Shown: positions 50,649 to 52,425 of the stretch, piece by piece | Numbering within the stretch: the first letter of the stretch is position 1 | Layout of the letters: each line of letters starts with the position of its first letter | NCBI RefSeq assembly: GCF_056746865.1 | Contig: NZ_CM163382.1 | Reading direction: 5' to 3' (one strand) | DNA length: 64,000 nt | Position numbers and translations under genes: made by a program | Notes under the pieces: generated by a model | What the model saw: only the letters and a program-made list of their open reading frames with translations | What the model was told of the DNA's origin: nothing | Database searches by the model: none

Positions 50649-50927
50649 GGTCTTCTCGCAAGTCGAAAAATATGACGCTACTTTAGCGTAATTGCTTGAT
50701 TTTGTCGCTGATGGAGAAGGAGAAGAAAATTCAGGAAATGGATAAAGTAGTTATTTAGAAATGAGATATTTTTGAAGGAAATTTTTTGGAGAATATGGGC
50801 ATCCGGGAGGATGACTCACTGGCGTTCGCCCTTCAGGCCGTTGCTGGCGCAACGTTATCCACCCAGGTGCTGGTGGTTATTACCACCATCTCTTCCATAC
50901 TTTCATTGCTGAAAGTTACGGAGAATA

Positions 50928-51004
50928 TGGTGCATCCGGGAGGATTCGAACCTCCGACCGCTCGGTTCGTAGCCGAGTACTCTATCCAGCTGAGCTACGG
51001 ATGC
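50928..51004 (-). tRNA. argQ: tRNA-Arg (anticodon ACG), copy 1
   Basis: Reverse complement GCATCCGTAGCTCAGCTGGATAGAGTACTCGGCTACGAACCGAGCGGTCGGAGGTTCGAATCCTCCCGGATGCACCA. Confidence 0.9.
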
Positions 51005-51202
51005 ATCGGGAAAATTTATTTTACTGCTGATATTGATATCGCTACTAAAGCCATATCAAGTAAGAGATGGTGCATCCGGGAGGATTACTCGCCTTGCGGC
51101 TCGCCCTTCGGGCCGTTGCTAAAGCAACGTTATCCTTCCTGGTGCCTGCGGTTAATTCCGCTACCTCTTCGATATCTTCATTGCTGAAGATTTCGGAGAA
51201 TA

Positions 51203-51279
51203 TGGTGCATCCGGGAGGATTCGAACCTCCGACCGCTCGGTTCGTAGCCGAGTACTCTATCCAGCTGAGCTACGGATGC
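51203..51279 (-). tRNA. argZ: tRNA-Arg (ACG), copy 2
   Basis: Identical 77-nt tRNA sequence. Confidence 0.9.
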
Positions 51280-51476
51280 ATCGGGAAATTTATTTTACTG
51301 CTGATATTGATACCGCTACTAAAGCCATATCAAGTAAGAGATGGTGCATCCGGGAGGATTACTCGCCTTGCGGCTCGCCCTTCGGGCCGTTGCTAAAGCA
51401 ACGTTATCCTCCCTGGTGCCTGCGGTTATTACCGCCACCTCTTCCATACCTTCATCGCTAAAGGTTACGGAGAATA

Positions 51477-51553
51477 TGGTGCATCCGGGAGGATTCGAAC
51501 CTCCGACCGCTCGGTTCGTAGCCGAGTACTCTATCCAGCTGAGCTACGGATGC
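51477..51553 (-). tRNA. argY: tRNA-Arg (ACG), copy 3
   Basis: Identical 77-nt tRNA sequence. Confidence 0.9.
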
Positions 51554-51751
51554 ATCGGGAAACTTACTTTACTGCAGATTTTTTGATACCGCTACTAAAG
51601 CCGTATCAAGTAAGAGATGGTGCATCCGGGAGGATTACTCGCCTTGCGGCTCGCCCTTCGGGCCGTTGCTAAAGCAACGTTATCCTCCCTGGTGCCTGCG
51701 GTTATTACCGCCACCTCTTCTATACCTTCATCGCTGAAAGTACGTAGAATA

Positions 51752-51828
51752 TGGTGCATCCGGGAGGATTCGAACCTCCGACCGCTCGGTTCGTAGCCGA
51801 GTACTCTATCCAGCTGAGCTACGGATGC
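51752..51828 (-). tRNA. argV: tRNA-Arg (ACG), copy 4
   Basis: Identical 77-nt tRNA sequence. Confidence 0.9.
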
Positions 51829-51831
51829 AAA

Positions 51832-51924
51832 TGGCGGTGAGGCGGGGATTCGAACCCCGGATGCAGCTTTTGACCGCATACTCCCTTAGCAGGGGAGCGC
51901 CTTCAGCCTCTCGGCCACCTCACC
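51832..51924 (-). tRNA. serV: tRNA-Ser (anticodon GCU)
   Basis: Reverse complement GGTGAGGTGGCCGAGAGGCTGAAGGCGCTCCCCTGCTAAGGGAGTATGCGGTCAAAAGCTGCATCCGGGGTTCGAATCCCCGCCTCACCGCCA. Confidence 0.9.
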
Positions 51925-52239
51925 ACACGCCTCTTACGAGTGCTTCGAAGAACTTGTTTATCGCTCATCGTCGCTGCGTGGCGCACATATTACTTTCTGA
52001 GACTTATAAGTCAAACAATTTTTCCCACACTTTTATCGTTTGCACACTTCACGCTCAATTAGTCTGTAAAAACGTCAAAAAGAGTGTTTTATCAACAAAA
52101 AAACGGAGGTCTGTCAGATAGCAGTAATGCAAAAAAATGGAGACTTAAGTTGAATGAACGGGAGTAAAGCGAAAAGACAATGGAGTGAAGAAGAAATTTT
52201 GAGGGTGCGTCTCACCGATAAAGATGAGACGCGGAAAGA

Positions 52240-52425
52240 TTAGTAACTGGACTGCTGGGATTTTTCAGCCTGGATACGCTGGTAGATCTCTTCACGGTGA
52301 ACAGAAACTTCCTTCGGGGCATTTACGCCAATACGTACCTGGTTGCCCTTTACCCCTAAAACTGTCACGGTGACCTCATCCCCAATCATGAGGGTCTCAC
52401 CAACTCGACGAGTCAGAATCAGCAT
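52240..52425 (-). CDS. csrA: Carbon storage regulator CsrA
   Basis: 61 aa, [61 protein letters not shown]. Confidence 0.97.

Follow-up and report, generated by a model that had tools for sequence, protein, structure and literature searches.

The window analysed here, a stretch of 64,000 nucleotides, carries at 50795-51924 on the minus strand the serV-argV-argY-argZ-argQ tRNA operon of E. coli, with csrA and yqaB on either side, and the elements in its tRNA-Arg spacers and trailer are tRNA-linked repeats (TLRs), a catalogued family whose members in this operon are named raV, raZ and raQ in K-12. The feature is real, conserved across genera and already known. We consider it highly probable that the pieces form a single picture, that of a serV-arg operon with TLRs related to RtT, which would be co-transcribed with the tRNAs and released from them, in a recombining array whose repeats are dispensable for tRNA production. 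New here are the architecture of the element, an acceptor/T-stem minihelix in which a hairpin cassette replaces the T-loop, its covariation over ten genera, the conservation of the cassette and the range of 0-3 internal copies among strains.

The locus is a 100% match to an E. coli chromosome, and the K-12 annotation runs in the order yqaB, argQ, argZ, argY, argV, serV, csrA. A consensus scan placed a putative promoter of the operon at 51987-52014 on the minus strand (TTGACT, a 16-nt spacer, TAATAT), which implies a leader of ~55 nt ahead of serV and agrees with the published serV leader of 52-56 nt (PMC7049720). The first gene, serV (51832-51924, minus strand), was identified as tRNA-Ser(GCU) by ARAGORN, by Rfam (tRNA, 56.8 bits) and by annotation of the orthologous K-12 locus. 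Downstream on the same strand are four tRNA-Arg(ACG) genes at the positions of argV (51752-51828; Rfam tRNA 67.1 bits), argY (51477-51553), argZ (51203-51279) and, as the last gene of the operon, argQ (50928-51004), each called by both ARAGORN and Rfam. The sequence-only reading had described these as four identical genes separated by near-identical spacers of ~198 bp in tandem units of ~270 bp, and this description held: the four genes are the same over all 77 nt, the spacers between them measure 198, 197 and 198 nt with pairwise identity at 180-187 of 198 positions, and Tandem Repeats Finder returned a period of 274 over 50795-51829 (3.8 copies, 93% matches, score 1756). Along the transcript each unit consists of the tRNA (77 nt), an element of 133-135 nt that ends in a copy of the tRNA end, and a leader of 62-64 nt.

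We searched the 64-kb window with a covariance model built from orthologous Arg-type elements (model R1), which detected exactly four copies at 119-149 bits (E 1e-29 to 1e-36) and no further elements. All four begin at the base directly after a tRNA-Arg CCA, on the minus strand and in the same orientation as the tRNA. Copy 1 (51618-51751, 134 nt) scored 148.1 bits with model R1 and 29.4-34.7 bits with RtT; it is the orthologue of K-12 raV, its last 19 nt (51618-51636) exactly copy the tRNA-Arg 3' end, and the spacer in which it lies differs from K-12 spacer 1 at 1 nucleotide. It is followed by the 64-nt leader of the second tRNA-Arg (51554-51617, minus strand), which can be aligned to the spacers that consist of a leader alone in K-12 and other strains. 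Copy 2 (51342-51476, 135 nt; model R1 149.2 bits, Rfam RtT 29.2 bits), with its tRNA-end copy at 51342-51360, has no counterpart in K-12, whose argY-argZ spacer consists of a 62-nt leader alone that aligns exactly to the part after CACCA; the leader behind copy 2 (51280-51341, 62 nt, minus strand) is identical to that K-12 spacer. Copy 3 (51068-51202, 135 nt; model R1 144.3 bits, Rfam RtT 27.8 bits; tRNA-end copy at 51068-51086) is the orthologue of raZ and has private substitutions in common with K-12 spacer 3, and the spacer alignment defines the 63-nt leader behind it (51005-51067, minus strand). The trailer element (50795-50927, 133 nt; model R1 119.4 bits, RtT 21.5 bits) is a diverged orthologue of raQ. 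A copy at the trailer position was found in 10/10 genera examined.

In copies 1-3 the tRNA-end copy is exact at 19/19 nt (AATCCTCCCGGATGCACCA), and in the trailer it is degenerate (CATCCTCCCGGATGC-CCA), with a 14-nt exact run and then one base deleted. A truncated tRNA 3' end is therefore present in every spacer, as had been claimed, with a length of 19 nt in place of the 16 nt quoted, and the spacer alignment likewise upheld its fusion to a GC-rich hairpin-forming segment. The trailer corresponds to what had been seen as a fifth, diverged unit without a tRNA; it has 107-113 of 135 positions in common with the internal copies.

By definition the last 18-19 bp of a TLR, at its 3' end, match the end of the preceding tRNA or rRNA gene exactly, and K-12 has 22 TLRs at 10 loci (PMC8144298). 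The present elements lie directly downstream of a tRNA of the same operon in the same orientation, with the end identity given above. The strain table of Stenum et al. 2021 names 'delta(argY/Z/Q, raQ/Z/V)' (PMC8144298); this entry matches the K-12 map, in which spacers of 198, 62 and 198 nt plus a trailer place an element after argV, argZ and argQ and none after argY, and on this match we assigned raV, raZ and raQ. Catalogue membership of the arg-operon copies rests on that paper and its supplement (PMC8144298). That the spacer repeats belong to a catalogued family had been missed by the sequence-only reading. The family was reportedly first seen in tyrT by Egan and Landy in 1978, and the tRNA-linked repeats are said to have been catalogued by Rudd in 1999 and in EcoGene.

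We also compared the elements with the RtT family of Rfam (RF00391). A search of 2.6 kb returned the four copies at 21.5, 27.8, 29.2 and 29.4 bits, and a search of one spacer alone gave a truncated match at 34.7 bits (E 1.8e-5). None of the four window copies reached the RtT gathering threshold of 45 bits, and the orthologous elements of E. coli, Enterobacter, Brenneria and Hafnia also fell below it. The counterpart in Yersinia, likewise upstream of yqaB at this position, scored 70.8 bits and lies above gathering. Conversely, model R1 found the Yersinia element and the Lys, Pro, Glu, Arg(CCG) and Tyr RtT copies at 24-70 bits. Judged by these reciprocal scores, the window elements are reduced relatives of the tyrT-operon RtT. 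The idea that they are degenerate copies of a whole tRNA-Arg was rejected for this locus: their 5' part scored 10-14 against the tRNA body, with shuffles at a mean of 12, and neither ARAGORN nor Rfam called a tRNA in the spacers. The Yersinia copy alone was significant in this comparison (48 against a shuffle maximum of 20), and this similarity may be a clue to the origin of the family.

The predicted structure of the element follows the upper part of a tRNA. The tRNA-end copy covers the 3' part of the T-loop, the 3' strands of the T-stem and acceptor stem, and ACCA, and it pairs with the 5' strand of the element (GCACC-A-GGGAGGAU) in a helix resembling an acceptor plus T-stem; a conserved three-hairpin cassette with a possible tandem G-A layout occupies the place of the T-loop. 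The minimum-free-energy fold of the whole of spacer 1 has -77 kcal/mol (z = -5.6). In the consensus structure of 24 elements from ten genera 96% of cells are paired, and 10 pairs have changed on both sides, as compared with 3.4 +/- 1.2 in shuffles (0/500 reach this number) and 0-3 in slid controls. For 13/16 Arg, 14/22 Lys and 19/24 Tyr elements the 3' strand of the cognate tRNA formed the best duplex with the 5' region, where chance predicts about 1 in 7. Duplex energies were used for this test of tRNA-matched closing stems, the longest uninterrupted helix being uninformative since all 3' strands have ATCC followed by pyrimidines; the test works for Arg, Lys, Tyr and Ser and fails for the few Pro and Glu copies. 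Next to hairpin C, GCGAG-GCC...GGC-CGAGU would permit G-A/A-G flanked by C-G and G-U in all copies; the RF00391 family has a tandem G-A motif with covariation support (CaCoFold).

The sequence of the element is unevenly conserved. An orthologous element occupies the same csrA-serV-arg-yqaB position in ten genera, and mean identity between genera is 0.85 for the cassette, 0.88 for the closing strand, 0.55 for the 5' part and 0.44 for the leader. The same cassette has been kept behind different tRNAs in several gammaproteobacterial orders, following at least 8 tRNA species, each time with the cognate end. Conservation of the element exceeds what recent duplication would predict by a wide margin, given the ten-genus synteny, the compensatory changes and a cassette at 85% where its surroundings are at 44-55%. 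Such constraint on the cassette is more suggestive of some role at the RNA level or in protein binding than of pure junk.

Within E. coli the array is variable. Comparison of unit number among strains gave 0-3 internal copies and 3-4 tRNA-Arg genes; dissected examples had 0, 1 or 2 elements inside the array, or a partial one, and array length ranged from 470 to 1039 bp across 58 spread-sampled genomes. Natural strains occur with four tRNA-Arg genes separated by leader-only spacers of 62-64 nt, among them WP3-S18-ESBL-08 (62-63 nt). One or more internal copies are missing in K-12 and many other strains, K-12 being without the middle copy through a precise loss between 19-nt direct repeats, and some trailer copies have large internal deletions. 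Expansion and contraction of the array would be driven by recombination between its direct repeats, namely the 77-nt tRNA genes, the 19-nt tRNA-end copies and short microhomologies, and such recombination would yield the observed spread in elements and genes.

These dynamics raise the possibility that the elements are neutral or selfish DNA without an RNA function, kept only by recombination between tRNA genes and tRNA-end copies that regenerates and homogenises them. Presence/absence polymorphism and the range of array lengths within one species fit such a reading, as do the precise K-12 loss, the microhomology deletions and the failure to find a function since 1978 (PMC8144298). Nevertheless, a cassette that stays at 85% between genera, in spacers whose leader and 5' part have drifted to 44-55%, is beyond what within-genome recombination can maintain, the helices still pair through compensatory changes, and the cassette is conserved behind different tRNAs in several orders. 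We regard the neutral reading as possible but rather unlikely.

A more speculative proposal, which we hold to be doubtful, is that TLR and RtT elements are functional mimics of the tRNA 'top half', with an acceptor/T-stem minihelix, a free CCA and a strongly conserved tandem-G-A hairpin cassette for a T-loop, each matched to the preceding tRNA. A factor that recognises tRNA 3' ends, be it a processing enzyme, a toxin or a sensor, could have such an RNA as its ligand or decoy, at a dosage tied to tRNA transcription. The cassette would have spread between tRNA loci with the universal T-loop sequence as its site of insertion or conversion. In the Yersinia copy the cassette lies inside a recognisable tRNA-Arg T-loop, which suggests this mode of spread. 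Two other functions were set aside. The only one claimed for rtT RNA, a stringent-response role in modulating recovery from amino-acid starvation that is repeated in several papers, was withdrawn by its authors in 1994 (PMC8144298). The adjacent csrA and the 5S-linked TLRs bring to mind a CsrA sponge, and here the published CsrA-binder prediction score is <0.01 for the 19 tRNA-operon TLRs (PMC8144298).

Returning to the operon reading, we propose that the element is co-transcribed with the tRNAs and freed by ordinary tRNA-processing enzymes. RNase E, which cleaves 1-3 nt after CCA in A/U-rich sequence, would cut in the U/A-rich stretches that directly follow the real CCA and the pseudo-CCA, after which exonuclease trimming would stop at the CCA that the helix flanks. 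This would leave a structured by-product RNA of ~130 nt, by analogy with rtT RNA. In K-12 the homologous RNA rttR is annotated as beginning 7 nt downstream of the tyrV CCA and as ending exactly on the CCA of its tRNA-end copy. The tRNA-end copy with U-rich sequence behind it could plausibly signal 3' processing of the element itself.

In that narrow sense the suggestion of the sequence-only reading that the conserved spacer structure acts in processing or termination has some merit. The wider idea, that the operon needs the spacer structure as a functional processing or termination module, we find improbable. UAUUCU directly after the tRNA CCA is an RNase E-like context, the second CCA lies in a similar one, and a copy follows the last tRNA in all ten genera. 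Against this, WP3-S18-ESBL-08 has four tRNA-Arg genes and leader-only spacers, K-12 lacks its middle copy, as many strains lack internal copies, some trailers carry large internal deletions, and a published strain table lists a K-12 derivative deleted for all 22 TLRs (PMC8144298). Given the leader-only natural strains, K-12 and the 22-TLR deletion, the element is unnecessary for tRNA maturation and individually dispensable. The frequency of natural loss, together with the trailer deletions and the same 22-TLR strain, argues that any function is weak or conditional. Termination fared no better: on the transcribed (minus) strand no terminator-like hairpin with a T run was found in the elements, the sole terminator-like site being a weak hairpin at 50689-50675 just before yqaB, and the terminator reading was rejected.

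Integration into a tRNA gene classically leaves a direct repeat from T-loop to CCA behind the intact gene, and such a repeat is present here. The tRNA 3'-end copies could in principle be attL/attR-type scars of integrative elements once inserted in tRNA-Arg genes. However, the ~116 nt between the repeats hold no integrase, cargo or ORF of note, the cassette occurs behind at least 8 tRNA species with their own ends, the copies are tandem and syntenic in ten genera, and a 5' strand complementary to the tRNA-end copy is not required of a scar. In contrast to the tRNA 3'-end duplications of genomic islands, which they resemble in the repeat itself, the repeats in the window enclose a 116-nt conserved structured RNA alone and are syntenic across genera. 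We consider an integration origin very improbable.

The overlapping ORFs of the array, already taken for repeat artefacts, are rightly so called: those on the plus strand run antisense through the tRNA genes, and a 42-aa ORF on the minus strand (51447-51319), which starts in copy 2 and continues through the cassette, has its ATG in only 2/4 copies. We give next to no credence to a small protein encoded by the spacers in analogy to tpr (a protamine-like ORF that K-12 annotation puts inside rttR in the tyrT repeat), since this 42-aa frame has ATA for ATG in copy 1 and ATC in copy 3, its start lies in a region whose sequence is unrelated to that of Enterobacter, Brenneria and Hafnia, and by inspection its frame through the shared core differs from that of tpr.

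As a finding, the array matters little, being the textbook serV-argVYZQ operon with spacer repeats catalogued in 1999. It does call for caution in annotation: RefSeq, and Rfam at its gathering threshold, leave the copies unmarked, so that a naive reader sees novelty. What interest remains lies in the covarying structure, a cassette conserved far above its surroundings, the tRNA-matched closing helix and the constant copy after the last tRNA of the operon. Strains in which the number of internal copies naturally runs from 0 to 3 are ready-made material on possible effects of the elements on tRNA-Arg supply or on anything else.

Compared with known systems, the elements share with the leuZ 3' external transcribed spacer a probable release from a tRNA precursor by tRNA-processing enzymes, described for leuZ (cited in PMC8144298) and here drawn by analogy. 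They differ from it in being structured mimics of a tRNA end instead of single-stranded seeds, with no base-pairing target or sponge activity known or predicted. RrA, RrB and RrF, the TLRs linked to 5S rRNA, belong to the same repeat family by their authors' definition and are likewise co-transcribed with a stable RNA and processed (PMC8144298). In contrast to the present elements, they copy the 3' end of 5S rRNA, lie between dual terminators, and bind Hfq and CsrA in vitro via GGA motifs (PMC8144298). The closest counterparts are raV, raZ and raQ of K-12, in the same operon, after the same tRNA-Arg(ACG) genes and with the 19-nt tRNA-end copy; copies 1, 3 and the trailer align with them and have private substitutions in common. 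The window strain differs in a fourth copy (51342-51476) where K-12 has a 62-nt leader, and in a more degenerate tRNA-end copy in its trailer. With respect to rtT RNA (RttR) and the 178-bp tyrT repeats, the Arg elements are without the two 5' hairpins of the RtT model (the GAGAACC..GGUUCGA..GAGCG.AGCGAGA segment), end as tRNA-Arg and not as tRNA-Tyr, and have no conserved tpr-like ORF. They nevertheless have in common with them the cassette AACGUUGC-loop-GCAACG-GCCCGAAGGGC-GAG-hairpin-CGAGUAAUCC, a closing helix made with a copy of the host tRNA 3' end, a position directly after the tRNA, and tandem amplification.

The array is the serV-argV-argY-argZ-argQ tRNA operon of E. coli, carried on the minus strand. 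ARAGORN placed tRNA-Ser(GCU) at 51832-51924 and tRNA-Arg(ACG) at 51752-51828, 51477-51553, 51203-51279 and 50928-51004 (all minus strand), with all four arginine genes the same at 77/77 nt. A 1.5-kb query gave 100% identity to an E. coli chromosome and matches in 5425/5426 complete E. coli genomes, and the annotated orthologous stretch of K-12 reads yqaA, yqaB, argQ, argZ, argY, argV, serV, csrA. Tandem Repeats Finder returned a period of 274 (3.8 copies, 93% matches) across 50795-51829, and along the transcript each unit comprises tRNA-Arg (77 nt), an element (134-135 nt) and a leader (62-64 nt). The element lies directly 3' of the tRNA in the same orientation, starting with UAUUCUCCG and ending with AAUCCUCCCGGAUGCACCA, 19 nt that match the tRNA 3' end exactly (the tRNA-end copy). 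The element after the last tRNA-Arg (the trailer, 50795-50927) is diverged (107-113/135 positions shared with the other elements) and carries a degenerate tRNA-end copy. The tandem units, tRNA-end copy, diverged extra unit and ORF artefacts described in the sequence-only reading were all recovered, whereas its strand and exact copy length required correction. The plus-strand ORFs run antisense through the tRNA genes, and the 42-aa minus-strand ORF has its ATG in just two of four copies. Also artefacts are a plus-strand 'tRNA-Arg(tcg)' called by ARAGORN at 51737-51808, an antisense image of the true minus-strand gene, and sub-threshold Rfam matches to Plastid-ycf2 and Plastid-psbI-rps4 (50930-51004, 51205-51279, 51479-51553, 51754-51828 and 51835-51889, plus strand), again antisense tRNA images.

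The operon is flanked by csrA (52240-52425) and by the start of yqaB (50648), both on the minus strand. A consensus match identified a promoter-like site upstream of serV (TTGACT-16-TAATAT, 52014-51987, minus strand), whose position agrees with the serV leader measured as 52-56 nt (PMC7049720). A weak hairpin with a T run lies at 50675-50689 (minus strand), between the trailer and the yqaB start. Since no terminator stronger than this was found downstream of the tRNA operon, transcriptional read-through into yqaB-yqaA seems possible.

The entire spacer folds at -77 kcal/mol (z = -5.6 versus shuffles). A consensus structure derived from 24 elements of ten genera can be divided into five: an upstream hairpin, a closing helix of 12 pairs in which GCACC-A-GGGAGGAU pairs with the tRNA-end copy, and cassette hairpins A (invariant in sequence), B (nearly invariant) and C (variable). 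This structure pairs 96% of cells. Changes on both sides were seen at ten pairs, against 3.4 +/- 1.2 in column shuffles (0/500) and 0-3 with partners slid, and 8/24 sequences carry a G-C to C-G swap in hairpin C. The flanks of hairpin C (GCGAG...CGAGU) would allow the tandem G-A motif that CaCoFold reported, with covariation support, in RtT RNA (Rfam RF00391, the repeated element of the tyrT operon).

Because the 5' strand of the closing helix repeats the T-stem 5' strand (GGAGG) and most of the acceptor 5' strand of the tRNA, the predicted helix resembles one half of tRNA-Arg, the coaxial acceptor/T-stem, with a single-stranded ACCA end and the cassette replacing the T-loop. Of the tRNA 3' strands compared, the cognate one formed the best duplex with the element's 5' region in 13/16 Arg, 14/22 Lys, 19/24 Tyr and 1/1 Ser copies, where chance is about one in seven and relatedness within a type leaves few independent events; for the few Pro and Glu copies the cognate strand was not the top partner. 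In the Yersinia copy, 35 nt of tRNA-Arg body stand directly before the cassette (anticodon-stem 3' strand, variable loop, T-stem 5' strand and UUCGA; score 48, shuffle maximum 20), which places the cassette inside a recognisable T-loop. The same alignment found no such similarity in the window's copies. At the locus of that Yersinia copy (Yersinia nurmii, L069; 1-200 nt after tRNA-Arg in transcript orientation), a terminator-like hairpin (CCTCGCTACGGCGGGG plus T run) follows the tRNA and recurs after the element.

Mean pairwise identity across nine genera was 0.95 for the tRNA-end copy, 0.88 for the closing 5' strand, 0.85 for the cassette, 0.55 for the 5' part of the element and 0.44 for the leader. 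In Hafnia and Yersinia, where the tRNA itself differs (AUCUUCCUGGGUGCACCA), the tRNA-end copy and its partner strand differ correspondingly. Together these data indicate that conservation exceeds what recent duplication predicts, the cassette being constrained relative to the leader and the copy and its partner tracking the tRNA.

A scan for the core GCAACGRCCYGAAGGGYGA, with each species represented by a single genome, yielded at least 120 loci. Among the matches listed, most are from Enterobacterales, with others in Orbales, Vibrionales, Alteromonadales and Oceanospirillales, and the remainder are scattered and chance-like. The upstream hosts of the loci listed are tRNA-Tyr, Lys, Arg(ACG), Arg(CCG), Pro(CGG), Pro(UGG), Glu and Ser(UGA), and an exact 18-20-nt copy of the preceding tRNA's 3' end terminates most of these elements. 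Core matches also lie 62-100 nt upstream of tRNA-Thr GGU (L007, L050) and tRNA-Asp GUC (L034, L035), at locus edges with the upstream gene outside, so additional host tRNA (or rRNA) types probably exist. The csrA-serV-arg-yqaB neighbourhood is kept in all Arg loci extending far enough, and the Yersinia element sits directly upstream of the yqaB homologue, the position of the window's trailer. In a Pluralibacter MAG (L116), the first arg spacer (285 nt) holds two tandem elements, the second diverged and without a tRNA-end copy.

A covariance model trained solely on the 24 Arg-type elements found the four copies in the 64-kb window (119-149 bits) and no further match there. It also recovered the Yersinia element and those of the Lys, Pro, Glu, Arg(CCG) and Tyr types (24-70 bits), with E. 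coli Lys copies (59-70 bits) scoring above Tyr copies (24-30 bits). A reduced form lacking two 5' hairpins (junction GGAT|AACGTTGC) occurs behind both tRNA-Lys(UUU) and tRNA-Arg(ACG), as seen on comparing five Lys operons (L088, L111, L052, L022, L025) with window positions 51068-51202. Taken with the Lys scores, this distribution suggests that a single deletion arose and was later carried from locus to locus, or that the deletion recurred.

When the two unique flanks were joined and used as a query against E. coli genomes, arrays of 470-1039 bp were obtained in 58 spread-sampled genomes; the main size classes were ~1034 bp in 9 (the window's form), ~900 bp in 18 (the K-12 form), ~766 bp in 6-7, ~631 bp in 7 and ~490 bp in about 8. 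The window's strain has one element more than K-12 (51342-51476). As the 62-nt argY-argZ spacer of K-12 is identical to the leader behind this copy, the only difference between the two forms is the segment bounded by the two 19-nt direct repeats; copy-number variation runs through direct repeats. Among dissected E. coli arrays, one has four tRNAs with leader-only spacers (62-63 nt), another three tRNAs with leader-only spacers, and another four tRNAs with a single element. An O157:H7 strain (L126) has a partial, 102-nt spacer of first hairpin and leader only; of two trailers with internal deletions (L127, L128), one has lost the closing-helix 5' strand and pseudo 3' end between two GCACCA hexamers, and the other 22 nt. 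These three loci represent decay routes of the repeats. In FDAARGOS_1291 (NZ_CP069980.1 828645-834016) the locus is ~1.3 kb longer between the same flanks and contains an IS4-like ISVsa5 transposase. The other genera likewise have internal spacers made of the leader alone or of an element and a leader, and the element after the last tRNA-Arg was present in every genus examined. A K-12 derivative from which all 22 tRNA-linked repeats (TLRs) have been removed is listed as constructed (PMC8144298, strain table). Given this strain and the natural leader-only arrays, internal elements are dispensable for tRNA maturation.

The sequence-only reading had proposed a role for the spacers in processing or termination. 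Termination found no support, as a terminator scan detected no intrinsic terminator signal within the elements, and a requirement in operon processing is not supported, internal elements being dispensable. Self-processing of the element has support by analogy. RNase E cleaves 1-3 nt past CCA in A/U-rich sequence, and both the true CCA (followed by UAUUCU) and the pseudo-CCA of the tRNA-end copy (followed by UCUCUUACUU) have such an RNase E-like context. The annotated K-12 rttR, the tyrT homologue, starts 7 nt past the tyrV CCA, and its 3' end coincides with the CCA of its tRNA-end copy. By analogy, the arg element is probably co-transcribed with the tRNAs and released by ordinary tRNA-processing enzymes. 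That the family acts as a mimic of the tRNA 3' half is unlikely, but we retain this reading because the cassette is well conserved despite free copy loss and one cassette stands behind many tRNAs with matching ends. The starvation-recovery effect once attributed to rtT has been withdrawn. In vitro, the 5S-linked TLRs bind both Hfq and CsrA, and their phenotypes are no more than modest; tRNA-operon TLRs are predicted non-binders of CsrA (PMC8144298).

All four elements gave weak matches to RF00391 (21.5-29.4 bits in context; 34.7 bits, E 1.8e-5, when one spacer was searched by itself), where the gathering score is 45 bits. With this cut-off, the Tyr, Arg(CCG), Pro, Lys, Ser and Glu types and the Yersinia Arg(ACG) element (70.8 bits) are called as RtT; the E. 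coli-type Arg(ACG) elements found in Escherichia, Enterobacter, Brenneria and Hafnia are not. Direct comparison with the K-12 tyrT locus revealed a common cassette: AACGUUGC-loop-GCAACG, GCCCGAAGGGC and GAG-hairpin-CGAGUAAUCC. Behind the cassette stands the tRNA-Tyr 3' end in the tyrT repeat and that of tRNA-Arg in the arg element. Judged on these similarities, the window's elements belong to the RtT/TLR lineage in a reduced form that lacks the two 5' hairpins of complete members. TLRs were described by Stenum et al. [quoted passage not shown] The supplementary strain table of that paper includes 'delta(argY/Z/Q, raQ/Z/V)' among the 22, so the arg-operon copies are already named raV, raZ and raQ. 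In exact agreement, the K-12 spacers (198, 62 and 198 nt) and trailer put elements behind argV, argZ and argQ but leave argY without one. The feature is real, but its repeat family has already been catalogued, in the most thoroughly studied of bacterial genomes.
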